From a virus, in IMG/VR virus record IMGVR_UViG_3300021469_000002, positions 1 to 64,000 of that record: a stretch of 64,000 nucleotides of DNA; one strand, 5' to 3'. The notes under the pieces were generated by a model. The model saw only the letters and a program-made list of their open reading frames with translations, ran no database searches and was not told the origin of the DNA. Each line of letters opens with the position of its first letter. Positions within the stretch are counted from its first letter, which is position 1. A program made the position numbers and the translations under genes. Shown here piece after piece: positions 12,275 through 41,753 of the stretch.

Positions 12275-12802
12275 ATGAAAAAATATGAAAAATCTTGGTT
12301 AGCAGGAGTAATAGATGGGGAGGGATCGATAATGATTTATGATTATATAGATAGACGTGGGTGGAGAAATAGACATGCTAGAATAGAAATTGTAAATACT
12401 AATAAAAATTTTATTGAAAGGGCAGGAAAATTGCTTAACTTAGATTCAAAAATTATTAAGCAAGTTAGAGGGAAAAATAGAAAACCACTTTATAGAGCAA
12501 GACAGGCAAACCATAAAAAAGTTCTATCAATTTTAACTCAGATATTACCTTATCTTATCATTAAAAAAAATAAAGCAATAGAAGCGATTGATTTCATTAA
12601 AAGAACTGATTGGGGTAAAAGAAGATTTTCTTCTACTAGATCAGAAAGTTTAAGAAAATCATGGAAATTGAGAAATATAAAATGGGCTATTAATTACGAC
12701 AAATGTCTGAATTGTGGTACTACTAAATTTAAACATTTTGGGCATGGATTATGTTCACGATGTTATATGAGGAGGTGGCATAAATCACACGAGTCCTCGT
12801 AA
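12275..12802 (+). CDS. Free-standing LAGLIDADG homing endonuclease with C-terminal zinc finger
   Basis: WLAGVIDGEGSI, ILPYLIIKK, CLNC...HGLCSRCY. Confidence 0.85.
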   Translation: MKKYEKSWLAGVIDGEGSIMIYDYIDRRGWRNRHARIEIVNTNKNFIERAGKLLNLDSKIIKQVRGKNRKPLYRARQANHKKVLSILTQILPYLIIKKNKAIEAIDFIKRTDWGKRRFSSTRSESLRKSWKLRNIKWAINYDKCLNCGTTKFKHFGHGLCSRCYMRRWHKSHESS

Positions 12803-13767: not shown

Positions 13768-15806
13768 TTTTTATAACTGGTGCTCATGGAAAATTGGGTT
13801 CTGAATTAAGTAAATTATATCCTAACGCTTTAAAACCTACACATAAAGAATTAGATATTACAAATAGAAAACAAGTTTTTGAATATATTAAAAAACACAT
13901 GCCAAACACTATTATTCATTTAGCAGCATTAACAGGAATAAGACAATGCGAAGAAAATAAAAAATTAGCTTGGGAAACTAATGTTCTGGGAACAAAAAAT
14001 CTTATAGATGCTTGTCTAGAACATAATCCAAGTGTTTATTTCATATATATGTCAACTCCGTGTTTTACAAAAAACACATTAATCTTAACTAATTTCTCAA
14101 TAAAACCGATTTCTTTGATTAGAAAAGGTGAAAAAGTAATTACTCATAAAGGAAATTTGAAAAAAGTTGTAAAAACATTTAAGCGAAAATATAAAGGAAA
14201 GATATTAAAAATCAAACCATTAGGAAATTTAGAGATTGAATGTACTCCTAATCATCCGTTTTTGGCTATTAAAAGAAAATATAAAAAAAATTATAAGGAA
14301 GACAAATTTAAAAATATAATAAAAAGAAAACCAAAATGGATTCTGGCGGGAGATTTAAACATTGGAGATATGTTGGTTGTTCCAAAAATAAAAATAACTG
14401 GATATGCTCCACGTTTTGTAAAAATATCAAATAAAAGACTCGAAAAATATTATGAAATAATGAAGCTTGAAATACCTAGATATGAATCTGGAAAAATTAA
14501 GCGTGGGATTTTATCAGAATTATCCAAAAAATATAAAATCAATAAGTTGGTTTTAAGTGGATGGATAAACAAAAAACATAAACCAAAACATCTTATTAAT
14601 TTAAAAATTAAAATTGATAAAAATTTGTCTTATTTATTTGGAATATTTGTTGCAGAAGGGTGGATACAATACAATAAAAGATTTTATAAAAAAAGAAAAA
14701 AATACTATAGTAGCAAAGAATTAGTTTTCGCTTTTGGTGAAGAACCAAATCTTATTGAAAAAACAAAAAAAATATTAAGGCAAAAATTTAATATTGATGC
14801 CAAAATTGAAAAAATGAAAAATCAAAAAGGCTATAAATTACATATTGTTGATAAAAATATAGCTAATTTATTTGAAAAATTATTTTATAATAAAAATGGT
14901 CATAGAGCATGGAATAAAAAATTACCAAATTGGTTTCTCTTTTTGAATAAAAATCTCATCTCCGCTTTTTTAAAAGGATATTGGGATGGTGATGGCTCAA
15001 TTTGGCAAGGACAGCATCCATTTGCTTCCTGTTCGACGGTTTCTTTTAAGTTGATAAATCAAATTAAACTATTATTGTTAAAACTAGGAATATATCCATG
15101 TTTAATTAAAAGAAAGCCAAGTAGTCAAATTTTAGGAAGAAAAGTAAAAGATAAAGAAAGTTTTCAATTAATTATTTCTGGCAAACAAATCAAAAAATTT
15201 GCTAAATTACTTGGTTTTTCTTTCAAATATGAGCCAAAATATCAAAAATTTATAGAAACTAAAGATTATTTTTTAGTTCCAATAACAAAAATAGAAATTG
15301 AAGATTTCAATGGTGATGTTTTTAATTTAGAAGTTTTAGATGATAATTCCTATTTATCTTCATACATATCTGTACATAATTGTGTTTTTTCAGGAAACCC
15401 AAAAGAAGCCCCATTCACTGAAAATTCTTTTCCCTATCCGAAAAATTTTTATTCTTTAACAAAATTATTGGGTGAAATGGCTGTAAGATTTACTGATTTA
15501 AGATGGCTTGTTATTAGAGGAAATTTTGTTCCTAGAGCGAAATGGCTCTATCCTAAAGCCTTTACTGATAGATGGGGAACATACTTGTTTGCAGATCAAT
15601 TAGCTATGGCAATAAAAGAGGTTGTTGAGAAAGGTTTATGTGGTATAGTTCATTTAGTTGGAGATAAAAAATTAAGTATGTATGAATTAGCCAAAATGAC
15701 AACACCAGATATAGAACCCATGACGCTTAAAGAATATTCTGGTCCACCTTTAACTCAAGATATGAGTTTAGATACTATTATTTGGCATAAATATAAAATT
15801 GATTGA
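13764..15806 (+). CDS. rmlD: dTDP-4-dehydrorhamnose reductase-like SDR containing an intein
   Basis: ITGAHGKLG, LDIT, IIHLAA, NVLGT, YMSTP|CVFSG, YSLTK. Spliced product about 240 aa. Confidence 0.85.
   Translation: MIFITGAHGKLGSELSKLYPNALKPTHKELDITNRKQVFEYIKKHMPNTIIHLAALTGIRQCEENKKLAWETNVLGTKNLIDACLEHNPSVYFIYMSTPCFTKNTLILTNFSIKPISLIRKGEKVITHKGNLKKVVKTFKRKYKGKILKIKPLGNLEIECTPNHPFLAIKRKYKKNYKEDKFKNIIKRKPKWILAGDLNIGDMLVVPKIKITGYAPRFVKISNKRLEKYYEIMKLEIPRYESGKIKRGILSELSKKYKINKLVLSGWINKKHKPKHLINLKIKIDKNLSYLFGIFVAEGWIQYNKRFYKKRKKYYSSKELVFAFGEEPNLIEKTKKILRQKFNIDAKIEKMKNQKGYKLHIVDKNIANLFEKLFYNKNGHRAWNKKLPNWFLFLNKNLISAFLKGYWDGDGSIWQGQHPFASCSTVSFKLINQIKLLLLKLGIYPCLIKRKPSSQILGRKVKDKESFQLIISGKQIKKFAKLLGFSFKYEPKYQKFIETKDYFLVPITKIEIEDFNGDVFNLEVLDDNSYLSSYISVHNCVFSGNPKEAPFTENSFPYPKNFYSLTKLLGEMAVRFTDLRWLVIRGNFVPRAKWLYPKAFTDRWGTYLFADQLAMAIKEVVEKGLCGIVHLVGDKKLSMYELAKMTTPDIEPMTLKEYSGPPLTQDMSLDTIIWHKYKID
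14061..15380 (+). mobile_element. Intein (440 aa) with LAGLIDADG endonuclease
   Basis: Starts CFTKNT; block B TPNHPF; FGIFVAEG and LKGYWDGDG; ends SVHN with Cys at +1. Confidence 0.93.
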
Positions 15807-15807
15807 T

Positions 15808-16893
15808 ATGTTAAATAAAATTCAAAAAAAAATAAATGCAGACTATCCACCAACACACACTTTTTTAGCCAAAACTTTAGAACCTACAAATATTTTGAAA
15901 CAAAGAATAGAAATAATAAATAAACATTTTCCTGATTTTTTTAAAGGAGAAAGATTACTTGATATAGGTTGTAGTAAAGGTTATTTTTCTTTAAGTTATG
16001 CGAAGAATTTTAAAGAAATTATTGGAATAGATAATAATAAAGAATTTATTAAAATTTGCCAAGAATTAAAACAATATCATAAAATTAATAATGTTGAATT
16101 TATACATGCTTCTTTTAGAAATTTTGCTACTGATAAACAATTTGATAAAATTTTTTTAGGTAATACGCATCATCATTTATTTAAAGAAATAAATGGGCAT
16201 GAATGGATAGATAAATTGGCAGCTATAAGCAATGGTTATGTTTTAATAGAAGGTCCCTATAATACAGCATGCCCAGATACAAGAAATTTTCCAAAAAAAT
16301 TTAATGATTTTATGGGAAAAATGTCGGATCATTTTATACTTTTGGATATGATTCCTACAGTTTCATATACACCTGATAGACATTTCATATTATGGAAAAG
16401 AAGAGAATTAAAAATGGAAGAAGGAAAAAGATATATCAAGAAATATTTTAAATATGATAAATATACGGATAATAATAAAATTGATATATTTATTGCTTCT
16501 ACTTCTCCTATAAGTAATGGTTTAGTTACTTTTACTGAAGATGGTTGGATAGAAGAATTTGTTGATTCTCCAATTTATCATTATTTTGAAAACGAAAAAG
16601 AATTATTTAAATTACATTGCATACATCAAATTTATTTGTCTAAATTGGGTTATTGGGATATGGACTCTGCTACAATAAATTTTTTCAAAATAAACAACAA
16701 ATTATTTGATAAATCTGCTGTAATGCCAATAAGAAAAATTAAAAAAATACACATCGATGGATATTTTAAATTATTAAATCAAAGTTATAAAACTATAAGC
16801 AAAGAAATACAAGAAAAGATAAAAGAAGCAATAAAAACTAAAAATCCAAAAGAATTTGAAAAGGTGTATGAATGGGTGAAATCAAAATTATAA
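15808..16893 (+). CDS. Class I SAM methyltransferase with possible degenerate kinase-like C-terminal domain
   Basis: LLDIGCSKGYF and IGIDNN motifs. C-terminal LSKLGYWDMDSATINF..KLFD. Confidence 0.75.
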   Translation: MLNKIQKKINADYPPTHTFLAKTLEPTNILKQRIEIINKHFPDFFKGERLLDIGCSKGYFSLSYAKNFKEIIGIDNNKEFIKICQELKQYHKINNVEFIHASFRNFATDKQFDKIFLGNTHHHLFKEINGHEWIDKLAAISNGYVLIEGPYNTACPDTRNFPKKFNDFMGKMSDHFILLDMIPTVSYTPDRHFILWKRRELKMEEGKRYIKKYFKYDKYTDNNKIDIFIASTSPISNGLVTFTEDGWIEEFVDSPIYHYFENEKELFKLHCIHQIYLSKLGYWDMDSATINFFKINNKLFDKSAVMPIRKIKKIHIDGYFKLLNQSYKTISKEIQEKIKEAIKTKNPKEFEKVYEWVKSKL

Positions 16894-17894
16894 AAGATAA
16901 ATGGTCGCCGTGGAATGAAACAGGCGGAGATCCAACACTTATAGATGTGTGGGATAATCCAAACAGACCATGGCCAAGTATAGTATATGTTGAAACCACT
17001 AATTATTGTAATGCAATGTGTGCTCCTTGCTTAAATCACAGATGTAAAAGAATAAGAGGAATAATGAGTTTGGAAACTTTTAAAGAAATAGCTCATAAAA
17101 TAAAGAAGAGAGGAGTAAAAATTGGAGCAATGTTTTGTTTTGGTGAACCTCTTATAGATCCTACTCTTTTTCAAAAATATGCTTATGCAAAAAAATTGGG
17201 CATTTTAACTCCTGGTCATGTTGGTTTAAATACTAATGTTTCTCTTTTAACTCCTGAAAAATATGATGAAATTTTGGAATATACTCCTAATATAATTCTC
17301 TCTTTTTTTAATGTTGGAAAAAAATACGAAGCATTAACCGGAGGATTAAGTTGGGAAAGGAGTTATAAAAGAGCTATAGATTTTATAAAATATAGAGATA
17401 AACATAAACCAGAGTATCCTATATTTATTAGCGTAAATACTGTTAGAGGACATGATTTAGCAGCAGTTAAAAAGGCATTTGAAGGTTATAGAGTACTTTA
17501 TGTCCAAGATGCAGAATTGCGTTGGGCAGGAAGTGTTATGATTATTTCTGATAGATTAAAAATGTATCATCATTGGCGTTGTGATGGTTATAAAGGAGCA
17601 TTACAAATTAAATTTAACGGTAATTGCGAATTTTGTGCATATGATATTGTTGGAACAGATGAGGGAGTCGGAGAAACTTTATTTGGAAATATTTTAGAAG
17701 ATTCTTGGGATGAATTAGATAGAAAATTTAGAGAGCTTTGGCGTAAACCTTGTTCCTTATGTTTAAGATGTGATATGTGGTATCATTGTAAAACTATAAT
17801 GGCTAATGGATTTAAAGATCCTGATCCATTACCTGAAGATTGGTTTGATTGGCAAAAACCATTCTTAAAACCAGGAGAATCGTTTTACAAGTGA
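16872..17894 (+). CDS. Radical SAM protein with SPASM/twitch domain
   Basis: CNAMCAPC, FGEPL, NTN; C-terminal C..G....C..D...FGNI...CSLCLRC. Confidence 0.88.
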   Translation: MGEIKIIKDKWSPWNETGGDPTLIDVWDNPNRPWPSIVYVETTNYCNAMCAPCLNHRCKRIRGIMSLETFKEIAHKIKKRGVKIGAMFCFGEPLIDPTLFQKYAYAKKLGILTPGHVGLNTNVSLLTPEKYDEILEYTPNIILSFFNVGKKYEALTGGLSWERSYKRAIDFIKYRDKHKPEYPIFISVNTVRGHDLAAVKKAFEGYRVLYVQDAELRWAGSVMIISDRLKMYHHWRCDGYKGALQIKFNGNCEFCAYDIVGTDEGVGETLFGNILEDSWDELDRKFRELWRKPCSLCLRCDMWYHCKTIMANGFKDPDPLPEDWFDWQKPFLKPGESFYK

Positions 17895-17899
17895 GAAAA

Positions 17900-18655
17900 A
17901 TGAAATATAATATTTCGGTTGTAGTGCCGGTTTATAATACTAAAGCAAAATATTTAGAGCAGTGTCTATTTAGTATTTTCGGTCAAACATATCAACCCTA
18001 TGAAGTAATTATAGTAAATGATGGTTCTACTAGAAAAGAAACATTAAATGTTCTTAAGATGATAGAAGAACAAAATCTTAAGAATGTAAAAATAATTCAT
18101 CAAGAAAATAAAAAAATTAGTGGTGCATTAAATACTGGTATAAGAAATATGAAAGGTAATTGGTGGGCTGGTTGTGCATCTGATGATTTATGGTTTCCTA
18201 ATAAATTAGAAGAGCAAGTAAAATTCGCAAAAAAACATCCTGAGGCAAGAGTAATATATGCTAATTGGGTTATGATCGATGAAAATGGTTTTTTTATAAG
18301 ACAAGTTAATGAAGTTGAATTTTTTAGTCTAAGAGATCAACAACTTTATTTATGCCAAGCTTATTTTGCTACTTGGAGTAATATGCTAGTTCATAAAGAA
18401 GTATTTAAAAAAATTGGTTTATTTAATGAAGCTTTTCCAACATCTGAAGATTATGAAATGAATATTAGAATAGCTCAGTATTACTTATTTTACAAAGTTC
18501 CAAAAAATTTAATGATGTATAGAGTTCATCCTGAGCAATTATCAGAAAGTGAATGGGGATGGAAAGGCGAGAAAGGAAAAGAATATACAATTAGAGCTCA
18601 AAAGCTTGCCAAACAGCTTTTTTGGAAAAGTAAACATGGTGATGGTAATGAATGA
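17900..18655 (+). CDS. GT2 glycosyltransferase
   Basis: SVVVPVYN, IVNDGS, ALNTG, SDD, SEDYEM. Confidence 0.9.
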   Translation: MKYNISVVVPVYNTKAKYLEQCLFSIFGQTYQPYEVIIVNDGSTRKETLNVLKMIEEQNLKNVKIIHQENKKISGALNTGIRNMKGNWWAGCASDDLWFPNKLEEQVKFAKKHPEARVIYANWVMIDENGFFIRQVNEVEFFSLRDQQLYLCQAYFATWSNMLVHKEVFKKIGLFNEAFPTSEDYEMNIRIAQYYLFYKVPKNLMMYRVHPEQLSESEWGWKGEKGKEYTIRAQKLAKQLFWKSKHGDGNE

Positions 18656-30661: not shown

Positions 30662-31321
30662 ATGATGAACAAGCAAAAAGGTAATATGTATCCTTGGGTA
30701 ACTCACACATGGAATGCTATTCGTGGAAAATGTCCATATGATTGTAATTATTGTTATATGAAAAATTTAATAAAAAATAAAAAACTAAGATTAGAAGAAA
30801 AAGAACTTGAAACTGATTTAGGGCAAAATAATTTTATTTTTGTTGGTTCTTCTATAGATATGTTTGCTGAAACGATTCCGAGAATATGGATTGAAAAAGT
30901 TTTGGCTCATTGTAGAAAATATCCAAATAACACTTATCTTTTCCAATCCAAAAACCCAAAACGCTTTTATGAATTTATTAAATTAAGAATGTTCCCCAAA
31001 AGAACTATATTAGGAACGACAATAGAAACTAATAGAAACTATGAAACAAAAGCTCCTCAGCCAAAAGAAAGATATATGGCAATGAAAAATATTAAAGAAT
31101 TTGAAAAAATGGTTAGCATAGAACCTATTATGGATTTTGATTTTAATATTATGGTTGGAATGATATATTTTATTAGACCCAAATTCGTTTCAATCGGGGC
31201 TGATAGCAAAGGGCATAATTTACCTGAACCACCAAAAGAAAGACTTATTAAATTAATCGAAGAACTTACCAGATTTACTAAAGTTAAAGTTAAGGACAAT
31301 CTTAAACGATTATTAATATGA
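30662..31321 (+). CDS. DUF5131 / phage Gp37Gp68 radical-SAM-like protein
   Basis: TWNAIRGKCPYDCNYCY, FVGSSIDMF, FQSKNPKR, GTTIET, VSIEP. Confidence 0.8.
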   Translation: MMNKQKGNMYPWVTHTWNAIRGKCPYDCNYCYMKNLIKNKKLRLEEKELETDLGQNNFIFVGSSIDMFAETIPRIWIEKVLAHCRKYPNNTYLFQSKNPKRFYEFIKLRMFPKRTILGTTIETNRNYETKAPQPKERYMAMKNIKEFEKMVSIEPIMDFDFNIMVGMIYFIRPKFVSIGADSKGHNLPEPPKERLIKLIEELTRFTKVKVKDNLKRLLI

Positions 31322-32709
31322 GAACATTAGAACAAATTTTTGGAGATGAGAAAGAAGAAAAATTCCTACTAGATTGTAGATTTGATTTTGGTAAATGGGT
31401 TAGAAGAGTACATGGTTATCAATATAAATGGTTTCATAAAGAATGGGTTGATGCTCTTGAATCTAAAAAAAGGATAGCTATCCTAGCTCCTACGGGTTTT
31501 GGTAAAACAACAATACTTGCTGTATGTTATTCGATATGGAAAACTTTTTATAATCCTTATTGGCAGGGTTTAATAGTTTCTAATTCTGTTCCTCAAGCAA
31601 CGAAAATAATAGATCAAATCAAATTTGAATTAACTGAAAATGAACTATTACAGCGTTTAATTCCTAGTTATTCTCAATTAACTTGGAGCAAAACAGAAAT
31701 TTCTACAGCCACTAAAGGAAAAATATTTTGCAAACCTTATGGTGAAAGTGCAAAAGGAGTGCATGTAGACTATGTTTTATGCGATGAGGCTTCATCTTAT
31801 CGTGACCATAATATATTTTTTCGGTATATAGTAACAAGAGCAACAGCAAAAAGAGGTTGTGTTGCTGCAATCTCAACGCCTGTAAATGAAACTGATTTAA
31901 TGATTTCTAAATTAATGAAAAACCCGGAATACTGGCACAAGGCATACCCTGCTATACAAAATGGAAAATCTATATGGCCGGAAAGATTTCCATTAGAATG
32001 GCTAAGAAAAAGAGAAGCGGAGATTGGTAAAACAGCATTTGCTCAACAATATTTATGTAGAATAGTGCCTGAATCAGAAGAAATTCCATTTCCTATGAAT
32101 TTATTAATAAAGGCACATGATTTGAATTTAAGATTTATGGATAAAAGACCAGAAGGAGATACTGATCCTTATTATGTTGGTTGCGACTTTGCTCTTGCTA
32201 TAAAGGGAGATTGGTCTGCATTTGTAGTTGGTAAGAAAAGAAAAGATAATAAAATTCAAGTCGTTAAGATATTTAGATTTAGAGGAATGTTGCCATCAGC
32301 TCAAATGGAAGTTTTAAGAAGTATTAATAATAATTATCAACCCAATAGGATGCTTTTGGATAAATCTAATTTTGGAGAAATGTTTGTTAGAGATTTAATA
32401 GCAGAAAATCTTCCTGTAGTTGGTTTTCCATTTACACAGGAAAATAGAAACTCGGCGTTTGCAAAAGCTATAACATTATTCAATGAAGGTAATATAATAT
32501 TGCCATATAGTAAAGAGGAAACTCCAACATCAAAAATGATTGACAGACTAGAACACGAATTAACTCATTTTGTTGTTGATAAGACACCAAGAGGATACGC
32601 AACATATAAAAGTTTATCTGATTATGATGATGTAGCTATTGCTTTTATATTAATGGTTAAGGCGGCATCGGAAGAAAGAAAGTTTTTATCATACATGAGG
32701 GCTAGGTAA
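31318..32709 (+). CDS. terL: Terminase large subunit
   Basis: Walker A APTGFGKT, Walker B LCDEA, ISTP, WPERF, nuclease GCDFA...D...DDVAIA. Confidence 0.93.
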   Translation: MRTLEQIFGDEKEEKFLLDCRFDFGKWVRRVHGYQYKWFHKEWVDALESKKRIAILAPTGFGKTTILAVCYSIWKTFYNPYWQGLIVSNSVPQATKIIDQIKFELTENELLQRLIPSYSQLTWSKTEISTATKGKIFCKPYGESAKGVHVDYVLCDEASSYRDHNIFFRYIVTRATAKRGCVAAISTPVNETDLMISKLMKNPEYWHKAYPAIQNGKSIWPERFPLEWLRKREAEIGKTAFAQQYLCRIVPESEEIPFPMNLLIKAHDLNLRFMDKRPEGDTDPYYVGCDFALAIKGDWSAFVVGKKRKDNKIQVVKIFRFRGMLPSAQMEVLRSINNNYQPNRMLLDKSNFGEMFVRDLIAENLPVVGFPFTQENRNSAFAKAITLFNEGNIILPYSKEETPTSKMIDRLEHELTHFVVDKTPRGYATYKSLSDYDDVAIAFILMVKAASEERKFLSYMRAR

Positions 32710-32813: not shown

Positions 32814-34091
32814 ATGGTTGTACTGGACTTCAATTCTATTAGAGGTATTTTTAAGGGTTCTCAAAGACAAGTAATCCAGACTCTAGCAATAAGAAGCAGT
32901 GCAGGCGAAACGAAGACAATAAAATCAGATGAAGAAGAAATAAAAAGAGTTTCTCCGCTTGATTTAGAAACAATATATATTAGAGAAGGAATGGTTTATA
33001 ATTGGATTAATAAATTTGTTGAATCATTTCTTTCTTCCGATTTCAGAATTAATACATCTAATACAAGAGAACGCAGAATAATGGAAGATTTTTTAAGAGC
33101 TTCAGATTTTAGAAATTTATTAAAAACTACTGTTGCTCATATGTTGATTTACGGGAATGCTTTCTGGGAAAAAATAACTAATGATGGACCTAAAATTCTT
33201 GCTGTTACATGGATTGATCCAAAAAGTATGGATGTTAAAAGAACATCAATGGGTAAAATTATTTATGATATGGATGGTAAACCAACGGCTTATGTGCAAT
33301 ATGTTAAATGGAATGTTGACACTTCCAAAGTTCCAAAAGAAAGATTAATACAACAACAGCCAATGTTTTCTTATCAAAGCGGAAAAGGTATACTTTTAAA
33401 AAGAGAGGAAATTGTTCATTTTACTTTAAATACTGTGGGAGATTCTTGGTGGGGGGTTGGGTTAATTGAACCAATATATAATATAGTTAGGGTAAAACAA
33501 AACGCTGAAGCGGGATATGCAGAAGCTATTCAAAGAGTTGCTTATCCAAGAATATGGGTAAGAATTGGAGATGAACAACATCCGCCAACACAAGAACAAA
33601 TAGATGATGTATGGAATCAATTAAAAGGATTAGAAACAAAACATCAGTTTGTAACGCCATATTATTACAATCCACAAATTCTTGAATCAAAAAGGGTTGA
33701 AAGATTAGCACAAAATTTAAAATATTTTTCTGATCAAATAGTTGCAGGTTTGGGAGGACCAAAACCGTTTATTACTGGACTAGGTACAGATACAAATAAG
33801 GCAACATTAAATGATCAAAAAATATTATTTGAAAGACAGTTAAAAGCATTACAAGAGCAAATTAGTCATACCATAATGAAAAATGTGTTTGCTGATATAG
33901 CAAAACAGTATAGATTTCGTTCTGTTCCTGTATTAGTTTGGGAAGAAATTTCTACAGAAAGTTTAGACAGTAAAGCAGATAGACTGGTTAAATATGTTAA
34001 TTCTGGATTGCTTATTCCAGACAAGGAAATAAGAAATATAGTAAGACGGTCGGAGAGATTACCGGAGGAGCCCAACGATATTCAAAAATAA
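32814..34091 (+). CDS. Portal protein
   Basis: Follows TerL; IYGNAFWE, IVHF, WGVGLIEP, NKAT motifs. Confidence 0.88.
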   Translation: MVVLDFNSIRGIFKGSQRQVIQTLAIRSSAGETKTIKSDEEEIKRVSPLDLETIYIREGMVYNWINKFVESFLSSDFRINTSNTRERRIMEDFLRASDFRNLLKTTVAHMLIYGNAFWEKITNDGPKILAVTWIDPKSMDVKRTSMGKIIYDMDGKPTAYVQYVKWNVDTSKVPKERLIQQQPMFSYQSGKGILLKREEIVHFTLNTVGDSWWGVGLIEPIYNIVRVKQNAEAGYAEAIQRVAYPRIWVRIGDEQHPPTQEQIDDVWNQLKGLETKHQFVTPYYYNPQILESKRVERLAQNLKYFSDQIVAGLGGPKPFITGLGTDTNKATLNDQKILFERQLKALQEQISHTIMKNVFADIAKQYRFRSVPVLVWEEISTESLDSKADRLVKYVNSGLLIPDKEIRNIVRRSERLPEEPNDIQK

Positions 34092-34218
34092 TAAGAGATA
34101 AATATGAAAAAAATATCAGGCGTTTTCATCTCCAGAATGTTAAAAGAGGTTTTGGAAATTAGAAATTCCCTGGATTCACTTGATGCAAAGTTGGAGAACC
34201 ATTTAAATAATTGTTGTG

Positions 34219-34533
34219 ATGAAAATGCCAAGGAAAAAAAGTAATTCAGGAGAAGCTTCAATATCTGCCTTATTTACACATATAACTTATATTAGAGAAA
34301 AAATAGATGATTTGGATAAAAAAGTTGATGCTCATATAAATAATTTTGAAAATTGTAGAAGGGAACATAATAAAATAATAAGTAATCATAATGCTCGACT
34401 TCAAAAACTTGAAGATTGGAAATATTTTGAAGAAAATCAATGGCAAAGAAAAGTTCAAAAACACGGTTTATTAGTTGGGATATTGGCTATGATTGTTTCG
34501 GCTATTATAAGTATATGGAGTTTGGTGCATTAA
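34219..34533 (+). CDS. Coiled-coil protein with C-terminal transmembrane helix (holin/XhlA-like)
   Basis: Heptad region then GLLVGILAMIVSAIISIWSLV. Confidence 0.55.
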   Translation: MKMPRKKSNSGEASISALFTHITYIREKIDDLDKKVDAHINNFENCRREHNKIISNHNARLQKLEDWKYFEENQWQRKVQKHGLLVGILAMIVSAIISIWSLVH

Positions 34534-34534: not shown

Positions 34535-37500
34535 ATGAAATTAACGATTTTAGGTTCGGGTCCTACTAAACCCGTTATGGGTAAAGGAAAGAATAGACGT
34601 AGGAATAGTTCTATGCTTTTACAAACAAGAAACGGAATTAATATTCTTTTTGATTGCACTCCTAATTTTTATGAACAAATGCAAACCTTTGCTGATAATA
34701 TTAATAGAATAGATTATATTATTATTAGCCATGGTCATGCAGATGCAATTGGTGGAATACCGCAATTAAAACATTGGCTACAAGAAAAGAAACAAGAAGA
34801 TAAACCAATTGTATACATGGAAAAAGAAACCGAAGCCAGAATAAGAGAAAAGTTTAAAGACATTGAACATATTAATATAAAAAATTTTACCCCGTACAAA
34901 GTTTTAAATTTAGACTATCTAAAAATAGTTCCATTTAGGGTAATACACGCTGAGGCATTTCCAACAGGTCATAAATTTCCATGCGTAGGATTCAGAATTG
35001 ATAATAAAGTTGTATATGCTGAAGATATGGAAAAAGCACCAGAAAAGTCTATACCATATTTTGATAAATCTCATGTAATTATTATCGATGCAGCGATGTG
35101 GTTTGGAAAAAGTATTAGAGGACATATGAATATAGAAGAAGCATTACAATTTGTTAAAAAATTTAAAACTAGGAAAGTTGTTTTCACACAAGCAGGACAC
35201 ACTTATCCTGATTATGTAACAGCTTTAAAAGAAATTAAAAAGCGTTGGAAAGAAATAGGCGGAAGTTCAAAAGTTGATATTGAATTAGCTTATGATGGTA
35301 TGGAAATTAATATACCAGATTATTTCCAAAAAATAAATGATTATCTTATTGAGTTAAGAGAGGGAATATATCTTCCTGCTCCTCATGCAGAATTGCTTTG
35401 GAAAGGAAATAAGAAATATATTGTTAAAGCAAAAAAATATTCAAAAATGTTAGACAGGCTTCTTTATGTTTGTGATCAAAAATACGCTTATGCAATAATT
35501 AAATTAAAAAAGCCATTTATGATTAATCTCGAAGAATTTAATAAGTATAAACCAAAACATCTTGTTAGTAATGAAGAAAGAAAGAAATGGTGGGGTAATA
35601 AAAGGTATTTATTTCTTTATCCATTTGATATAGTTGAAAAATTCAAAAAACCTAAAGAAATTAAAGTTGAACGAGGAGTACAAACTTTCATAAAGAATGT
35701 TAAATTTTTAGCAGAACTCTCTACTATTGAACTTATTGAGGATGTCGCAGAATATGACCCACATACTGTTGGTAATGCACAGTTGGCTGATGATTGGAGA
35801 ATTGTTTGTGCTTGGTATGCAACCAAGAAAAAAGGAGGCAAAATTAAATTTTCATTAGAAACTATAGTAAATTTAGCAAAACTAATTTATGATGAAATAG
35901 TTAAAAGAGTTAAAAGAGGAGATATGAAACATGAGTTTCAGCCAGAAAAAATGACTCCATTTTCAAAACAATTATATGATATAGTTTCTCAAAATAAAAT
36001 TATTAAAACACCAGAAGAAGAATGTAAAGATACAGAATATACTGTAGATGTCGAGGAAGTAAAGCCCTTAATAGACCAATTTAAAGAGTTTAAAATAATT
36101 AAAGATTTTATTTCAATTGTGGGTTCGACAGTCAAAAGAGAACCGGGTCATAAACCAAATGATATAGATTTGCATATTCGTTTAAGAACGCCACCAGATT
36201 ATATTAAACGAGCAATAGAAGTAAGAATACTAAAAATGCTTCCAGCAGAGATTGCAAATAAAATTCATTTTGTATGGGGAGATCCAGAGGGTTCACATGA
36301 TTCTTTTATTCCTCTTTATGATCTTGCATTAGTAAGGACAGAACCAAAAGTTGTTGAAATGAAAGATACAACAACAGCTCAAGTTCCTGAACTTCTTCCA
36401 ACTGTTTGGATTGTTGGAAAAAAAGTTAGGGTTAAAGACAAAATTGGAAAAATAAAAGAAATAAAAAAAGAACCAAAAATATATATAATTGAATTTGAAG
36501 ACGGAACAACCATAGAAGCAAAAGAGGAAGAACTAAAAGCTATAGATTTTATTCCTCTCAAACCTTTTTTACCTCTTAAAAGCACATCTATATATAACAA
36601 AACAAAATTTTATGATCTTAAAAAAATAATAGAAGTACTTAATCCTAGTGAAGAAAATCTTTATATAGTTGAAGAAAAATTTGATGGTTTTAGAGGGGTA
36701 TTACATAAAAAAGGAAATAAAGTAAAAATCTTTTCGGATCAAGGAAAAGATATAACTGATGCTTTTCCTACAATATGTGATCAAGCACTTGATTTAACAG
36801 CAGAAGATATTATACTTGATGGGGAAATTGTTCCTTATGATAAAAAAGGAAGATCTTTGGGAAGAAGAGGATTAATGGAGTTCATTGGAGCAATTAGATC
36901 AGGCAAAAAATTAGATGATTCGAATATTAAATATCATGTCTTTGATATTCTTTATTATAAAAATAAATCTTTACACGATGCCAGACTTTATGAAAGAAAA
37001 AAAGTACTTAACCTATTAAAATTCACAAAAAATATAGTCAAAGTTCCATTTGTTGTTGTTGCTAATAAAGAACAATTGGAAAAAGCAATAAAATTATTCA
37101 GGGCTTTACCAAAAAGCGAAGGTGCGATGATAAAGGCTTATAATTCTACTTATCCAGTTAGTGGAAAAACTCCTTTCTGGATTAAATTTAGAAACGCAAG
37201 AGATATTCATGTCAAAGTTTTAAAAGTTTTGCCTGTTAAAGGAACAGAAAATGCTTGGAGATATATGTGTGGCATTGAAATTCCAGAAAAAAAAATTAAA
37301 GAATTTAATCCTGATAAACTTATGAAATATAATTCAAAAACCTATATGGTTTTTGGCAATACATTTAATACTTCTGTAAAAGCAAAAATTGGAGATATCA
37401 TTGATGTTGATGTTCAAGAAATTTGGAAACATGTTGGTCCTAAAGGAATACATTATAGCTGGCATAAACCCGATGTTCGATTTCTATCTGAAAGAAAGAC

Positions 37501-39355
37501 TACTTCAACAATAGCTGATTTAGATGCAATAGTTGATGCTATAGGAGTTTTGGTTAAAGAATATGGAGAAGAAGCAATTTTAAAAGAATTTGAATTAATG
37601 AAACAAGAATTAAAAAAAATAAAAGATGAAGGAGAAACTAGAGCAGAATATGCAACCAAGTTTTGGGCGTCTCATTGGTGGAAATCATATCCAAAAACAG
37701 GAAAAGGTAAAATGGTCTACCAACATCATTGGAGAGGGTTGACAGAAGAAGAAGCAAAATGGGATGAAGAAAAGTTATTACAAACTGATAGAAGCGTTCA
37801 TGGTGATTTAAGAATGCAGTTTAATCCTAATACTTTATTTGGTTTTACGATATTCTTAGGCGAAGTAGAAGATTTAAGAAAAGGAAGGGATTTATGGAAT
37901 CTTAAAGAGCCAGATAAATTGCAAGGAACATGGAAACTTTGGCAGCCTTGTATCTCGGAAGATTCTTTTGTGATAAAAAATCAAAATATAATTCAGGCTA
38001 AAGAGCTTCATATAGGCGATAAAATTTTGGATGCTAATGGCGTTTTTAGTCCCATAACTTCAATTGATGAAATAGAAGACAACGAACAGTATTTGATTAA
38101 ACCAAGTTATGGCTTACCTATCCAAGTGAGTAAATTGCATCCGTTTTTAGTTAACGGGTTAAGCGAAAGCCATACATTAGCACTGCTTTCACACAAGAAA
38201 AGAAAGATAATCAAACATAATTGTTTGCCCGTTTGGAAAAACGCAAAAGACTTAAAGATTGGCGATATATTACTTTTCCCTAAGTTAAAAATTAAGAAAA
38301 TTAATTATATTGGCACTTATGAAGAGGGAAAAATAATCGGATTCTTTCTTGGAGATGGGCATTTGTTTAGAGCTGGAAAAGATTATAAAACTCTATATTG
38401 TGCTTTAACCTTTAATGCAAAAGAAGATATCAATTCATATAAGAACTTGCTGAGAAAAATGGGTGTCCATAGCTGGATTTCCAGCCCCCCATCTGCAAAA
38501 AATACAAAAAATCTGGTATTTACATGTAAAGGAAGAATCAAAGATCTCATATTTCAGGTTTTTGACAAAGAAAAACAAATACCGCACAAATATTTGTATG
38601 CAAATAAAAAATTTATTAAAGGTTTGATAGACGGGTTAGTGGATTCTGATGGATATGATAAAAACAATCGAAGGTTCATAATTAATACATCAGCTTCAAT
38701 AATAAATGGAGCTGTTTTATTGTTACATCGGTTAGGTCATATTCCAAGTATCCGTTATAGAGAGAACAGTGATGTTGGCTTTAGGCTTCGTAAAAAGAAA
38801 AGCAAATTAAAAAAAGTTTTTGAAATAAGTTGGACTAAAAAACCAAAACATAAAAATTGGTTTGATTATGAAAATTTTTACGGTTTCAGGGTCAGACATA
38901 TAGAAAAAGCAAAACCCAAAAGGTTATTGAATATAATCACGAAAAGCCATACATTATGCTCCCCCTATTTCATTATGCATAATTCCGCGTGGTTAGATGT
39001 CGGCAAGAAAAAACCTTATGTATCAAAACCATCTGAAGTGGGAGCAACTCCAAAAAAATATGCAAAATTTTTTGCTGAAGATTGGGGTACATATGAAATT
39101 GGTGTATGGAGAGAGCACTTTTTTGAGTTTTTCTTCCATGGAAAAAAATTAAAAGGTAGATATTTGATTGTGTATGCTCCTGTGGGAGAAGGAGGAAGAA
39201 AATGGTTAATTGGAAAACCAGCAGATCAAACTCCTTATGCTGATAAACATAATATAGAAGATATAATAAAAGAATTAAAAATGAAAAAACAAGAATGGTT
39301 AATTTGGGCAAAACCTGGTGTCAAACCCAAGCTTATTAATGTGAAAAGGCGTTAA
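34535..39355 (+). CDS. Multidomain end-processing protein: MBL hydrolase + ASCH-like + Pol-beta nucleotidyltransferase + KOW/SH3-like + ATP-dependent DNA ligase + LigD 3'-phosphoesterase (with intein)
   Basis: LTILGSG..SHGHADA..H..D..GH; GIYLPAPHAELLWKG.K; IVGS..NDIDL; EEKFDGFR, ILDGEI, VFDIL, EGAMIK; YQHH..VHGDLR..DWGTYE..FHGKKLKGRY..KWLI. Confidence 0.85.
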   Translation: MKLTILGSGPTKPVMGKGKNRRRNSSMLLQTRNGINILFDCTPNFYEQMQTFADNINRIDYIIISHGHADAIGGIPQLKHWLQEKKQEDKPIVYMEKETEARIREKFKDIEHINIKNFTPYKVLNLDYLKIVPFRVIHAEAFPTGHKFPCVGFRIDNKVVYAEDMEKAPEKSIPYFDKSHVIIIDAAMWFGKSIRGHMNIEEALQFVKKFKTRKVVFTQAGHTYPDYVTALKEIKKRWKEIGGSSKVDIELAYDGMEINIPDYFQKINDYLIELREGIYLPAPHAELLWKGNKKYIVKAKKYSKMLDRLLYVCDQKYAYAIIKLKKPFMINLEEFNKYKPKHLVSNEERKKWWGNKRYLFLYPFDIVEKFKKPKEIKVERGVQTFIKNVKFLAELSTIELIEDVAEYDPHTVGNAQLADDWRIVCAWYATKKKGGKIKFSLETIVNLAKLIYDEIVKRVKRGDMKHEFQPEKMTPFSKQLYDIVSQNKIIKTPEEECKDTEYTVDVEEVKPLIDQFKEFKIIKDFISIVGSTVKREPGHKPNDIDLHIRLRTPPDYIKRAIEVRILKMLPAEIANKIHFVWGDPEGSHDSFIPLYDLALVRTEPKVVEMKDTTTAQVPELLPTVWIVGKKVRVKDKIGKIKEIKKEPKIYIIEFEDGTTIEAKEEELKAIDFIPLKPFLPLKSTSIYNKTKFYDLKKIIEVLNPSEENLYIVEEKFDGFRGVLHKKGNKVKIFSDQGKDITDAFPTICDQALDLTAEDIILDGEIVPYDKKGRSLGRRGLMEFIGAIRSGKKLDDSNIKYHVFDILYYKNKSLHDARLYERKKVLNLLKFTKNIVKVPFVVVANKEQLEKAIKLFRALPKSEGAMIKAYNSTYPVSGKTPFWIKFRNARDIHVKVLKVLPVKGTENAWRYMCGIEIPEKKIKEFNPDKLMKYNSKTYMVFGNTFNTSVKAKIGDIIDVDVQEIWKHVGPKGIHYSWHKPDVRFLSERKTTSTIADLDAIVDAIGVLVKEYGEEAILKEFELMKQELKKIKDEGETRAEYATKFWASHWWKSYPKTGKGKMVYQHHWRGLTEEEAKWDEEKLLQTDRSVHGDLRMQFNPNTLFGFTIFLGEVEDLRKGRDLWNLKEPDKLQGTWKLWQPCISEDSFVIKNQNIIQAKELHIGDKILDANGVFSPITSIDEIEDNEQYLIKPSYGLPIQVSKLHPFLVNGLSESHTLALLSHKKRKIIKHNCLPVWKNAKDLKIGDILLFPKLKIKKINYIGTYEEGKIIGFFLGDGHLFRAGKDYKTLYCALTFNAKEDINSYKNLLRKMGVHSWISSPPSAKNTKNLVFTCKGRIKDLIFQVFDKEKQIPHKYLYANKKFIKGLIDGLVDSDGYDKNNRRFIINTSASIINGAVLLLHRLGHIPSIRYRENSDVGFRLRKKKSKLKKVFEISWTKKPKHKNWFDYENFYGFRVRHIEKAKPKRLLNIITKSHTLCSPYFIMHNSAWLDVGKKKPYVSKPSEVGATPKKYAKFFAEDWGTYEIGVWREHFFEFFFHGKKLKGRYLIVYAPVGEGGRKWLIGKPADQTPYADKHNIEDIIKELKMKKQEWLIWAKPGVKPKLINVKRR
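37949..38983 (+). mobile_element. Intein (345 aa) with LAGLIDADG endonuclease in the phosphoesterase domain
   Basis: WQP|CISEDS, SKLHPF, IGFFLGDG, IDGLVDSDG, IMHN|S. Confidence 0.92.
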
Positions 39356-39564: not shown

Positions 39565-40743
39565 ATGAGTGAAGATTTACAATCGATTTTTGAGCATCCA
39601 ATTGTACAACAATTAGCAGAAAAGGCGTGGAAGGATTTAGAATCAGAAGTAAAATTACCTTATATCTTAAAAGATAAAATTTTGATGTCTCCGGGCGTAT
39701 GGAACAATTTTTATTATAGTCCAGAAGTTATTAGAAAAATTTTTAAAAACACTAATTGGGACGATCCAAAAATTAGGGCTTTATTTTTAGATCACGTTGA
39801 CGATAGAGCAGCGGAATGGATTGGAGAAGTAATTAATCCAAGATTAGTAAATGGTAATGTTATAGGTGACTTGGCTATATTAGACAAGCCGACAGCAATT
39901 AAATTGGCTTATGGAGCTAAGTTTGGTGTTTCACCCAAAGTTATCGGAGAAGCTGATTACAATAAAAAAATGTATGACGGTCATTTTGAAAATTTTTCTG
40001 TTGTAATTAATCCTGCTGTTAAGACTACGTTTCTTAACAGCGAAATAAAAATAAAAAATAAAGGAGGAAAAATAATGCCAAAGACTAAAGAAGAACTTCA
40101 AGAAGAAGAGTCTGAGGCATCCGAAGAAGCAGAAGAACCAGCAGAAGAACAAGAAGAAAAACAAGAAGAAAAACAAGAAGAAAAACAAGAAGAAAAAGCC
40201 GAAGAGCTTGCAGAAAAACTTGCAGAAAAGGTTGCTGAAATTCTCAAGAAAAAGAAATATGCATATCCAGAGGAAATGAAAAAGAAAAAGAAATATGAAT
40301 ATCCAGAAGAAATGAAAGAAGAAATAGCAAAATTAAAAGCAGAGATAGAGGAACTAAAAAAGAAGAAGAAAAAATATCCATATGAACAAAAAGCAGAAGA
40401 AAAAAATGAATTAAAAGAAGCAGTAGAAACTCATCTATCTGCTTATACAGACTTTATCAAAAAATTCTTGAAGAAATATCCTAAAGCAACATTAAAAGAT
40501 GCAGCAAAAGCATGGGCTAAAGAGCATGGAGAATTAGAAGAAAAAACTTCAATAACTGTAGAAGACTTAAAAACAGAAATTGGCGAAATTGTAACGGCTA
40601 AAATGTCCGAGTTTGGTATTAAGCCAATAACAGTTGCAGCTAAATTCATTAATCCTCAGGCAGAAGGTTATGTTGAGGAAGCAGAAGAGCATGAGCTTGA
40701 CCAAGCAATGTTTGATATGATTAAACAGGGGGTGGAAAAATGA
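39565..40743 (+). CDS. Prohead protease-scaffold fusion (internal scaffold start at 40075)
   Basis: FLDH...IGEV...GVSP...NFSVVINPA protease-like region, then an E/K-rich coiled coil. AGGAGG precedes the in-frame ATG 40075. Confidence 0.75.
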   Translation: MSEDLQSIFEHPIVQQLAEKAWKDLESEVKLPYILKDKILMSPGVWNNFYYSPEVIRKIFKNTNWDDPKIRALFLDHVDDRAAEWIGEVINPRLVNGNVIGDLAILDKPTAIKLAYGAKFGVSPKVIGEADYNKKMYDGHFENFSVVINPAVKTTFLNSEIKIKNKGGKIMPKTKEELQEEESEASEEAEEPAEEQEEKQEEKQEEKQEEKAEELAEKLAEKVAEILKKKKYAYPEEMKKKKKYEYPEEMKEEIAKLKAEIEELKKKKKKYPYEQKAEEKNELKEAVETHLSAYTDFIKKFLKKYPKATLKDAAKAWAKEHGELEEKTSITVEDLKTEIGEIVTAKMSEFGIKPITVAAKFINPQAEGYVEEAEEHELDQAMFDMIKQGVEK

Positions 40744-41753
40744 GAACAATACAAGAATTAGCTGATACCACGACATCCCATAATACAGACCTTTTAGCAA
40801 AAAGATGGTTAGATAAAATAATAGATTCAGCAAGAAAAAAGATGTTCTTTTTGAGTATTGTTAGTCAATATGATGTGCCTCCAGGAACCAAAGACATAGT
40901 AATTCCATATAGAAAAGGTTATTGGAGCACTCTTGGAACTACAGTAACTGATACTACTACAGAAGGGACATCAGTAGTTTTCACAGCAATGAATAATTTG
41001 GAAGGTTTAACATTAACACCGTCGCCACATTCCTATGGTATAGCAATATCCAATCACGCAATTAGAACAACAGCAACCAATTTAATTCAGGCTGCAAGAG
41101 AAGAATTAAGTGATTACTGGGCAGATGTTGTTGATAAAGCCATAGCTGCAGCAATTAATGGAGCCCCCGTAGCAACTTCTTCAGCAAAGGGTGCTTCTGA
41201 ATTATTTGGCGGAGATGCAACCTCGACATCAACATTAGAAGCTGGGGATATTTTAACACCATCTCTTATAGTGAAGGCAAAAGCAAGATTACAAGGAACA
41301 AAAATGTATTACTGGTCCGGGGGATCTGAATCAGTTTCAAATGAATCTAAAACGCCTTGGTTCTCTGAACCTAATTCACCTTTTGTAATTTTCATAGGAC
41401 CAGAACAGGAATACGTTTTACTAACAGATAGTCAGTTTACTAATGCAGCCGAATATGGTGGTAATGAAATAGTTCTTAATGGGGAAATAGGAAAGTATCA
41501 AGGAGTTAAAGTAATAACATCAGTTAATACTACAGCAGCATCGAATTGGGGTTCAGGAGGAAATTTAGCAGGACACAACTGTTATGTGGTTAAAGCAGGA
41601 GTATGTGCAGCATTAGCTTGGGGACAAAGACCAAGACTTAGAGTATTCGAATATCCAAGTGAGTTAGAAACAAGATTAATACTTGAACAAGCATATGCAG
41701 TAGATTCGCTTCATAACGATGCCATTTGTCATATAAAGGTTTTAGATGAGTAG
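40740..41753 (+). CDS. Major capsid protein (HK97 fold, N4-gp56-like)
   Basis: Position and size; FTNAAEYG...LNGEIGKYQGVKVI motif. Confidence 0.85.
   Translation: MRTIQELADTTTSHNTDLLAKRWLDKIIDSARKKMFFLSIVSQYDVPPGTKDIVIPYRKGYWSTLGTTVTDTTTEGTSVVFTAMNNLEGLTLTPSPHSYGIAISNHAIRTTATNLIQAAREELSDYWADVVDKAIAAAINGAPVATSSAKGASELFGGDATSTSTLEAGDILTPSLIVKAKARLQGTKMYYWSGGSESVSNESKTPWFSEPNSPFVIFIGPEQEYVLLTDSQFTNAAEYGGNEIVLNGEIGKYQGVKVITSVNTTAASNWGSGGNLAGHNCYVVKAGVCAALAWGQRPRLRVFEYPSELETRLILEQAYAVDSLHNDAICHIKVLDE

Follow-up and report, generated by a model that had tools for sequence, protein, structure and literature searches.

A LigD-like multi-enzyme protein encoded in the head module of a hydrothermal-vent tailed virus, and its possible delivery with the genome

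Why should a protein composed of DNA-repair enzymes be encoded among the capsid-assembly genes of a tailed virus? The question is raised by a virus from a hydrothermal vent, of which a window of 64,000 nucleotides was analyzed. A single uninterrupted open reading frame at 34535-39355, on the plus strand, encodes 1606 amino acids. An initial annotation had described it as a multi-enzyme protein and had quoted three motifs, all of which we located: SHGHADA at residues 65-71, GS..DID at residues 530-545, and KFDGFR at residue 715. The same annotation had listed, in order, an MBL hydrolase, an ASCH-like domain, a helical domain, a Pol-beta-type nucleotidyltransferase (NTase), a KOW/SH3-like domain, an ATP-dependent ligase, and a LigD-type 3'-phosphoesterase (PE), and had read the whole as a LigD analog that may be packaged in the head. 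Fold and profile searches with Foldseek, VIA, and Pfam uphold the MBL, ASCH, ligase, and PE domains; the NTase is probable only, the KOW/SH3 domain was not verified, and an intein had been overlooked. As for the interpretation, the domains, the LigD analogy, and the linkage to head genes hold up, but the assignment to a MuF-type slot does not.

The N-terminal region (residues 1-262; 34535..35320, plus strand) is an MBL-fold metallo-hydrolase, PhnP/RNase Z-like, matched by PF12706 at 4.5e-24 and scoring 85.6 bits where the cut-off is 27. Its NCBIfam matches are to MBL, RNase Z, and PhnP proteins, and PDB structures 3py5 and 3md7 are found at 5e-14. Residues H66, H68, D70, H138, D164, D185, and H197 are conserved across 58 family members. 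Motif 2 reads H66-G-H68-A-D70-A71, and is thus not a complete HxHxDH. At position 71, Ala is present in 41 of the 58 members and His in three, and in these aligned sequences Ala after HxHxD is a trait of the family. Residues 270-398 (35342..35728, plus strand) were recognized as an ASCH (PUA-like) domain by structural comparison of a predicted model in which the region has pLDDT above 90. Foldseek finds 2dp9 at 1e-5 and ZmASCH 5guq at 7e-5, and VIA aligns the latter with Z 11.8 and an rmsd of 3.4 over 120 residues; the Pfam ASCH model gives a weak hint in one homolog only (P0013, E 0.06). The conserved helical domain that follows (residues 399-505; 35729..36049, plus strand), with the signature YDP..DDWRIV.AWYS.KK, is modeled as helices of high pLDDT. 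VIA returned generic helical matches only, at Z 5.8 or lower, and relatives contain the domain together with ASCH and the NTase.

Residues 506-618 (36050..36388, plus strand) are probably an NTase of the Pol-beta superfamily, as judged from a motif and several weak matches, and any polymerase activity is putative. The region fits the pattern hG[GS]x9-13Dh[DE]h with a third carboxylate, in the form VGS (G530, S531), NDIDL (D543-x-D545), and YDL (D596), and the G, D, D, R, G, and D residues of the domain are invariant in 21 sequences. Within a 441-residue model, VIA gives a weak match to the MNT protein HI0073 (1no5_B, Z 5.3). The top profile matches, MNT 5yep and ASFV Pol X, align on the motif at non-significant E values of 0.3-0.5, and searches of the ESM Atlas lead to NTP_transf_2/Polbeta clusters with scores of 0.87-0.89, below 0.9. 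No Pfam model matches the region. Beyond it lies a small beta-rich linker unit (residues 619-680; 36389..36574, plus strand) of four short strands with pLDDT 55-75. Pfam hints there are of Tudor type only, at E 0.08-0.2, and the unit was detected in one (P0003) of 30 long relatives mapped; the proposed KOW/SH3 identity was not confirmed, and we describe it only as a small beta unit of low confidence.

The ATP-dependent DNA ligase (residues 681-1010; 36575..37564, plus strand; PF01068 at 3e-28) consists of adenylation and OB domains, with K715 as the motif I lysine and no N-terminal DNA-binding domain. Its Foldseek matches, at 6e-17 and about 360 columns long, are archaeal and human DNA ligases. 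In VIA it scores Z 22.2 with 2hiv, Z 19.7 with the LigD LigDom structure 1vs0, and Z 19.2 with the ASFV ligase, against only about Z 10 with RNA ligases. Six residues, K715, E764, E862, G863, K867, and K884, do not vary within the family.

The PE is split by the intein. A helical linker and the N-terminal half of the domain occupy residues 1011-1138 (37565..37948, plus strand), and contain H1065 and H1089-x-D1091-x-R1093, all four of which are invariant across the family; the C-terminal half, with a conserved C-terminal extension, occupies residues 1484-1606 (38984..39352, plus strand) and belongs to the same structural match. When the domain is assembled across the intein, VIA aligns 117 of 118 residues with the archaeal PE 3p4h_A at Z 12.7 and an rmsd of 2.0 A, and 3n9b_A follows at Z 10.5. 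Archaeal PE structures also rank top in a profile search, in which HxDxR aligns to 5dmp and 3p43. The Pfam LigD_N model finds nothing in the genome at E<=1, or on the two halves; a close homolog (P0018) passes it with 42.4 bits against a cut-off of 31.1. The C-terminal half gives a weak NCBIfam match to the LigD PE region and is 55-70% identical to relatives.

The intervening 345 residues (1139-1483; 37949..38983, plus strand) are an intein with a LAGLIDADG homing endonuclease. It begins with C1139 as Cys1, carries SKLH as block B, and ends in HN (1482-1483) followed by S1484 at the +1 position. Two LAGLIDADG motifs are present, GFFLGDGH and LVDSDGY, with a PF14528 match at 1.4e-8 and Hint-fold matches to 5bkh (Z 7.9) and 2jnq (Z 7.0). 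Intein-less homologs (P0005, P0007, L012, and L002) align straight over the insertion site. Splicing is predicted, and the spliced protein would have 1261 residues. The PE domain is a recurrent intein target in this family, with at least two insertion sites.

LigD, the ligase D of NHEJ, combines a PE, an AEP polymerase, and an ATP ligase, and works with Ku. The viral protein resembles it in having a ligase of adenylation and OB domains only, in the PE fold and its H..HxDxR residues, and in joining a probable nucleotide-adding domain to the ligase and PE in one polypeptide. A gene for Ku, a possible partner, lies in the same genome. The protein differs in that a small, probable Pol-beta-type NTase stands in place of the AEP polymerase, that MBL, ASCH, and helical domains are added, that the PE has an 18-24-residue insertion, N- and C-terminal extensions, and the intein, and that the gene lies in a head module, with relatives fused to the prohead protease. 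The 1606-residue ORF has no match to PF21686 (LigD_Prim-Pol), and the proposal of a LigD analog with a different polymerase fold is borne out to this extent. The sole PF21686 match in the genome is sub-threshold (19.4 bits), in a 783-residue ORF at about 69.5 kb; a candidate AEP-like gene near 8972 was set aside for want of Pfam support.

The surroundings of the gene agree with its placement between portal and prohead protease. Upstream are TerL (31318-32709), the portal protein (32814..34091, plus strand; Portal_Mu 5e-17, phrog_9232 5.5e-30), and a 105-residue ORF. Downstream are a protein with a prohead protease-like N-domain and a Lys/Glu-rich, scaffold-like C-terminal region (39565..40743, plus strand) and the major capsid protein, MCP (40740..41753, plus strand; phrog_1357 5.8e-15, Phage_capsid_4 4e-5). 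The first of these is called protease-like only from the ESM Atlas structural neighbors of residues 30-160, which carry Peptidase_S78, S77, and Mu-like_Pro at TM 0.6-0.7. Its H77 and S123 do not vary among 13 homologs; it has no Pfam match, and neither hhalign of its family against the protease-bearing protein P0067 nor a profile search of PDB gave anything useful. A non-structural cluster encodes RNase HII, a separate minimal ATP-dependent DNA ligase (24785-25636, minus strand; PF01068 1.3e-30), and Ku (25869-26612, minus strand; PF02735 1e-22, confirmed at 81.8 bits), and the last two may act together with the protein in end joining. No terminal repeat was found in this record. The host markers TBP, PCNA, and MCM, and tRNAs, were not found in the genome; relatives occur in both bacterial and archaeal MAGs, labeled Chloroflexota, Methanothrix, and Leptospira.

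Linkage to head genes extends well beyond this virus. The metagenomic family comprises 507 cluster representatives at E<1e-30, essentially unannotated and with shuffled domain orders. Among 105 viral loci, 61 have TerL or portal genes upstream, or scaffold or MCP genes downstream, on the same strand, and none has TerL, portal, scaffold, or MCP genes elsewhere only. The order TerL, portal, family member, protease/scaffold, MCP is kept in loci L002-L016 and in distant loci as well. The association with head genes, for which the initial annotation had suggested a synteny search, is conserved across about 100 viral loci.

Many relatives are joined to the protease itself. Peptidase_S78_2 is the C-terminal domain of five of the 30 long relatives, and follows directly after the PE C-terminal extension in fused forms; one of the five also starts with Mu-like_Pro. 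NTase-ligase-PE-S78_2 was the commonest architecture in a second scan (37 ORFs), and in a large clade the enzyme trio forms an N-terminal extension of an XkdF-type prohead protease. Most relatives have this core trio without MBL or ASCH; a Dam methylase occurs in 11 of the 30 long relatives, and uracil-DNA glycosylase (UDG) is also found. The virus's own portal protein, 39565-40743 product, and MCP revealed no fusions when compared by phmmer with 164 family proteins. The earlier assignment of the gene to the slot of MuF/gp7-like minor head proteins does not hold strictly: the genome has no PF04233 match at E<=1, and one relative (L079) has a separate MuF gene before its polyprotein, in the order TerL, portal, MuF, polyprotein (methylase-ligase-UDG-PE-protease), scaffold-like gene, cement protein, MCP. 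The polyprotein there occupies the protease position. The fusion of these enzymes to the capsid-maturation protease suggests a DNA repair kit built into the head. In a literature search, no account of a ligase/PE protein that is encoded in a head module or fused to a protease came up; the initial annotation likewise had not recognized the full architecture as described.

From the identities of the domains, the conservation of their catalytic residues, the synteny with head genes, and the fusion of relatives to the protease, we propose a LigD-like enzyme that would clean, fill, and seal breaks in DNA and would be delivered into the procapsid, a reading to which we give an even chance. Splicing of the intein would restore the PE, which would strip a 3'-phosphate or other 3' blocks; the NTase would extend the resulting 3'-OH with nucleotides, and the ligase, which may travel pre-adenylylated, would seal the strand. 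The MBL domain, as a phosphodiesterase or nuclease, and the ASCH domain, as a binder of nucleic acid, might contribute further end processing or recognition. Made alongside the head proteins, the protein could enter the prohead by association with the protease/scaffold, as the covalent fusion of the same enzymes to the protease in many relatives suggests. It would then travel with the genome and mend nicks, gaps, and breaks around the time of entry, or join ends with the viral Ku. Ku turned up in only two of 26 related records, and direct terminal repeats in several relatives, so end joining or circularization cannot be the general role; dependence on Ku and a general part in circularizing cos ends, both considered, are weakened by these counts and repeats, respectively.

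The suggestion of packaging gains independent support from the fusion of NTase, ligase, and PE to the XkdF-type protease, and we infer the presence of the protein in the virion from it; incorporation into the capsid is somewhat probable. Several observations count against it: the protein has no MuF or other known packaging domain, the virus's own protease is a separate gene from a family other than S78_2, and a protease-fused enzyme could be cut off before assembly. Ejection and early action in the host are more tentative, a little short of even, and a globular protein of 140 kDa must unfold to leave through portal and tail. The weak identification of the NTase and the missing fourth motif-2 histidine of the MBL domain weigh on the proposal as a whole.

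The alternative that survives best, although unlikely, is that of a late cytoplasmic enzyme, never packaged, which repairs nicks, gaps, and blocked ends in replicated concatemers so that terminase packages intact DNA. T4 packaging in vivo needs ligase-sealed DNA, the gene shares a late operon with TerL and portal, and PE, NTase, and ligase would suit nick and gap repair equally well. In the Corndog genome, moreover, enzyme genes that are not structural separate portal from protease (PMC4351075), so that location by itself is weak evidence. What such an enzyme would not explain is why dozens of viral contigs fuse NTase, ligase, and PE to the prohead protease, an arrangement that would sequester it in capsids, and a separate ligase, Ku, and RNase HII are already supplied by the non-structural cluster.

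An improbable alternative makes the protein an injected anti-defense effector of the polyvalent kind, directed mainly against RNA or signaling nucleotides: the MBL domain would degrade cyclic nucleotides, as Apyc1 does, or 2',3'-cyclic phosphate ends, RNA binding would fall to ASCH, and PE, NTase, and ligase would mend tRNAs cut by host anticodon nucleases. Shuffled and variable architectures do recall polyvalent proteins (PMC5512222), the MBL domain is nearest to PhnP and RNase Z-type phosphodiesterases, relatives of ASCH include an RNase and an ac4C amidohydrolase, and one homolog (P0007) has a weak RNA_ligase Pfam match at 6e-5. But the Apyc1 match is sub-threshold, at 17.9 bits against a cut-off of 50, and the ligase fold is far nearer to DNA than to RNA ligases. 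The fused partners in relatives, Dam methylase and UDG, act on DNA, and in most relatives neither MBL nor ASCH accompanies the core trio. The least probable reading, that the enzymes seal or trim DNA inside the capsid during or after packaging, or serve mainly as bulky internal head proteins never delivered, draws on the placing of enzymes in the prohead by protease fusion and on the ability of a pre-adenylylated ligase to seal once without external ATP, but the NTase needs nucleotides, the catalytic residues conserved in each of the three core domains speak against a merely structural function, and we know of no precedent for action in the capsid.

Among described systems, delivery of a repair enzyme with the genome has partial parallels. 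Phage polyvalent proteins are large multi-enzyme polypeptides with variable domain combinations (Iyer et al. 2017, PMC5512222), and the viral protein, with several unrelated enzymatic domains in 1606 residues and architectures that vary among relatives, fits that description. It shares with them, and with packaged anti-restriction enzymes of the P1 DarB type, genes beside head genes, DNA methylase domains (in relatives), and proposed delivery with DNA. It differs in lacking MuF, a portal fusion, or another hallmark domain, the tether in relatives being the prohead protease, and a text search of PMC5512222 found DNA ligase, LigD-type phosphoesterase, MBL fold, and ASCH absent among polyvalent-protein domains. 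In the mycobacteriophages Corndog and Omega, phage Ku and host LigD circularize the genome, according to Pitcher et al. 2006 as cited in PMC4351075. These too are tailed viruses with Ku and NHEJ-type ligation, but they borrow LigD from the host, whereas here the LigD-like enzyme is viral and encoded in the head module, and most relatives lack Ku.

ASFV packages enzymes of BER (Pol X, ligase, and AP endonuclease) in its virion (PMC12172490). The likeness lies in a Pol-beta-type polymerase of minimal size (probable in our virus), an ATP ligase, and enzymes that process ends, which in ASFV are carried in the particle and repair viral DNA before replication; ASFV infects eukaryotes, has these enzymes as separate proteins, and packages them by a core route, whereas ours is a tailed virus of prokaryotes with a single polypeptide whose packaging is proposed. 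The best match among GenBank viruses is CDS 3200-5800 of the ANME-1 archaeal virus ANMV-1 (KP703175), annotated "ATP-dependent DNA ligase." The match spans NTase and ligase, at 25% identity and E 5e-22; the annotation names the ligase only, and no MBL, ASCH, or PE match was detected.

As a still more tentative generalization, many tailed viruses of bacteria and archaea may build a LigD- or BER-like kit into the capsid, tethered or fused to the prohead protease and co-delivered with the genome, which would mend damage suffered outside the cell or inflicted by host nucleases before viral genes are expressed. Its core would be a 3'-end cleaner, a Pol-beta-type NTase, and an ATP ligase; UDG, Dam methylase, MBL, and ASCH would be optional parts. 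If this is true, no earlier case would be known of tailed viruses of prokaryotes packaging a DNA ligase and end-repair system; the kit would parallel the BER that ASFV and giant viruses package, and cargo would be loaded into heads by a new kind of tether, the prohead protease. It could help to explain how genomes remain infective where conditions are damaging, as at hydrothermal vents, and how DNA withstands nucleases on entry. The family also offers compact, possibly thermostable, self-contained enzymes for cleaning, filling, and sealing DNA that are of biotechnological interest.

The IMG/VR record is 79,771 bp long and complete by CheckV, the window being its initial 64 kb, and hydrothermal-vent metagenome runs contain its DNA. 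The large open reading frame at 34535-39355(+) has 1606 codons without interruption, and the motifs that the initial annotation quoted from it all lie where they were placed. Its domain list, however, missed an intein at aa 1139-1483 (nt 37949-38983, +), which starts with Cys, has a block B of the form SxxH as well as two LAGLIDADG motifs (PF14528, 1.4e-8), ends in HN followed by Ser, and matches the Hint fold at Z 7-8. The insertion site falls within a conserved K-L-x-Q-P|x-x-W motif, across which the intein-less homologs P0005 and P0007 and those at loci L012 and L002 align continuously. The spliced product would have 1261 aa, close to P0005 (1259 aa). Homolog P0018 has an intein at another site in the LigD-type 3'-phosphoesterase (PE), and P0023 and P0133 have one inside the ligase. 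A second intein in the window (13764-15806, +; Intein_splicing 5e-12, LAGLIDADG_3 1.3e-19) lies within the gene of a sugar nucleotide enzyme that is RmlD/epimerase-like.

The two C-terminal enzyme assignments hold. The ATP-dependent ligase matches PF01068 (3e-28), its motif residues are invariant across the family, and a model of aa 680-1606 aligns with archaeal and human DNA ligases over about 360 columns spanning the adenylation and OB domains (Foldseek 6e-17). In VIA comparisons it scores Z 22.2 against 2hiv and Z 19.7 against the ligase domain of Mycobacterium tuberculosis LigD, but only about Z 10 against RNA ligases. The PE halves on either side of the intein come together in the structure model, and the assembled domain aligns at 117 of 118 residues with the Methanosarcina PE 3p4h (rmsd 2.0 A, Z 12.7), scoring Z 10.5 against 3n9b, the PE of a Pseudomonas LigD. 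A profile built from 14 PE segments that lack the intein ranks the archaeal PE structures 5dmp, 3p43 and 3p4h on top, with HxDxR aligned. Pfam LigD_N does not match the window sequence; P0018, 57-67% identical in the PE, passes that model.

The N-terminal half is more varied in its support. The metallo-beta-lactamase-type (MBL) domain matches PF12706 (4.5e-24), its nearest curated models being generic MBL hydrolases, RNase Z and PhnP, and H66, H68, D70, H138, D164, D185 and H197 are conserved among 58 family MBL domains. The replaced last His of HxHxDH is indeed seen; because the residue following D70 is Ala in 41 of the 58 and His in only three, it is a subfamily trait rather than a sign of decay. 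The ASCH-like domain is borne out by fold: modelled with AlphaFold, aa 260-700 (pLDDT 82) match ASCH structures at Foldseek E 1e-5 and ZmASCH at VIA Z 11.8. Residues 399-505 are confidently helical and conserved, with generic matches only. In aa 506-618, 21 sequences show no or almost no variation at G530, S531, D543, D545, R549, G586 and D596, which by sequence is the Pol-beta superfamily signature. Matches by fold (MNT 1no5_B, Z 5.3), by profile (E 0.3-0.5, MNT and ASFV Pol X ranking first) and by language-model search all agree with this superfamily, though weakly, and we regard this region as a probable Pol-beta-type nucleotidyltransferase (NTase). The proposed KOW/SH3-like domain was not confirmed: it corresponds to a low-confidence four-strand segment, detected in one of 30 mapped long relatives.

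The gene lies among head genes. A DUF5131 gene (+) precedes the large terminase (31318-32709, +), followed by the portal (32814-34091, +), a 105-aa ORF (34216-34533, +) that stops one base short of the start codon of the large ORF, and, beyond the latter, a 392-aa gene (39565-40743, +) and the major capsid protein (40740-41753, +). The 105-aa ORF shows weak coiled-coil-like matches only and has no detected counterpart among relatives. The 392-aa protein matches no Pfam family; residues 30-160 of its ESM Atlas model resemble clusters with Peptidase_S78, S77 and Mu-like_Pro (TM 0.6-0.7), 13 homologs all keep His77 and Ser123, and its C-terminal region is Lys/Glu-rich. Because of these features it is most likely a protease-scaffold fusion, in agreement with the annotated prohead protease, whose identity is predicted at that strength.

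With aa 1-1138 as the query, an exhaustive HMMER search yielded 507 cluster representatives (E<1e-30), almost none with a functional name, in which the domains occur shuffled, split and recombined. The closest relative (L002, 7778-12411, 67% identity) has two overlapping genes and no intein, encoding MBL-ASCH-helical-NTase (628 aa) and ligase-PE (916 aa); L015 has ASCH-NTase-ligase, then MBL-PE; and PE also occurs as standalone genes. The order terminase, portal, family gene, protease/scaffold, capsid is conserved in L002-L016, and terminase and portal lie upstream in distant relatives (25-30% identity) too. Of the 105 viral loci whose family gene includes an NTase or a PE, 61 have terminase/portal upstream or scaffold/capsid downstream, no more than a few kb away and on the same strand, and none has these genes only elsewhere, which upholds the proposed linkage to head genes.

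In five of the 30 long relatives, a C-terminal XkdF-type prohead protease (Peptidase_S78_2) immediately follows the PE, and one of the five has a Mu-like protease at its N-terminus as well. A second scan seeded with the protease form gave 80 viral loci, the commonest architecture being NTase-ligase-PE-S78_2 (37 ORFs) and further ORFs being variants. Locus L079 (7103-14069) reads terminase, portal, MuF (a separate gene, PF04233 1.3e-9), a 1261-aa fusion, a scaffold-like gene, cement protein and capsid; the fusion is methyltransferase-ligase-UDG-PE-XkdF-protease, its PE assigned by homology and the rest by Pfam. A prohead protease works only inside the procapsid. Its recurrent fusion is, at the level of sequence, Rosetta-stone evidence for the NTase-ligase-PE trio entering the head, and the trio is predicted to do so because its fused partner must be there. 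The packaging proposed initially thus gains from these fusions, but the genome of this virus has no MuF domain.

Clues to the host are mixed. We found no TBP, PCNA or MCM in the genome; the top GenBank match of the large ORF is archaeal virus ANMV-1, and the MAGs that contain relatives carry the labels Chloroflexota, Methanothrix and Leptospira. A 175-kb contig of 59% GC (L130) in MAG Dehalococcoides sp. JdFR-54, a Chloroflexota bin, has a portal close to that of this virus (E 2e-66), followed by HEL and NTase-ligase-PE genes. These genes may belong to a prophage, and the contig may hint at a host for the virus group at large. Elsewhere, a DpdA-type DNA transglycosylase gene (6602-7387, +; PF23859 1e-23) suggests 7-deazaguanine modification of viral DNA. 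A sugar-nucleotide/glycan cluster (10767-20674, +) includes UDP-GlcNAc 2-epimerase (8.5e-88), NAD-dependent epimerases, a SAM methyltransferase, a radical SAM enzyme and a glycosyltransferase. Beyond the window, a 783-aa ORF (about 67.5-69.9 kb of the record, -; L134, L135) matches LigD_Prim-Pol (19.4 bits) and MCM/AAA (11.8 bits) below threshold and is probably a primase-helicase. The record ends (bases 1-50 against the last 50) share no terminal direct or inverted repeat; a 30-nt element, GTATA[G/A]GAAAATTAAAAATATATATCAAAT, lies near both with one mismatch, and the 10-mer TTGTATAGGA lies near the start with its reverse complement at the very end.

The large protein resembles LigD in joining PE, polymerase and ligase, but has a small, probable Pol-beta-type NTase instead of an AEP polymerase. 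The genome also encodes Ku (247 aa, 25869-26612, -; PF02735 1e-22), an adjoining minimal ATP-dependent DNA ligase (283 aa, 24785-25636, -), downstream of this pair a 399-aa ORF without family (23521-24720), and, in a leftward non-structural cluster, RNase HII (20667-21308, -; PF01351 1.8e-32). Together with Dam methylase (11 of 30 long relatives) and uracil-DNA glycosylase (UDG; 1 of 30), the partners Ku, second ligase and RNase HII point to DNA over RNA as substrate. NHEJ-dependent circularisation is described for mycobacteriophages Corndog and Omega (Pitcher 2006, as cited in PMC4351075), but end-joining circularisation cannot be the general role here, since of the 26 related viral records only two have Ku, and terminal repeats are present in some relatives. 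The portal-protease interval can hold non-structural enzyme genes (PMC4351075). The closest functional precedents are these two mycobacteriophages, ASFV, which packages a BER system (PMC12172490), and the polyvalent or ejected proteins of phages (PMC5512222), for which the polyvalent-protein paper makes no reference to ligase, LigD-type PE, MBL or ASCH domains. Literature searches found no published description of a head-module or protease-fused ligase/PE protein. The original observation is thus borne out, with the intein, the wider family and the fusions to the protease adding to it, and its interpretation is supported in part. Given the LigD-like enzymology and the DNA-acting partners, we favour a candidate capsid-loaded enzyme for DNA break or BER-type repair that would accompany the genome, and rate it as kin to two known kinds, repair enzymes of the LigD-like type and effector proteins that phages package.
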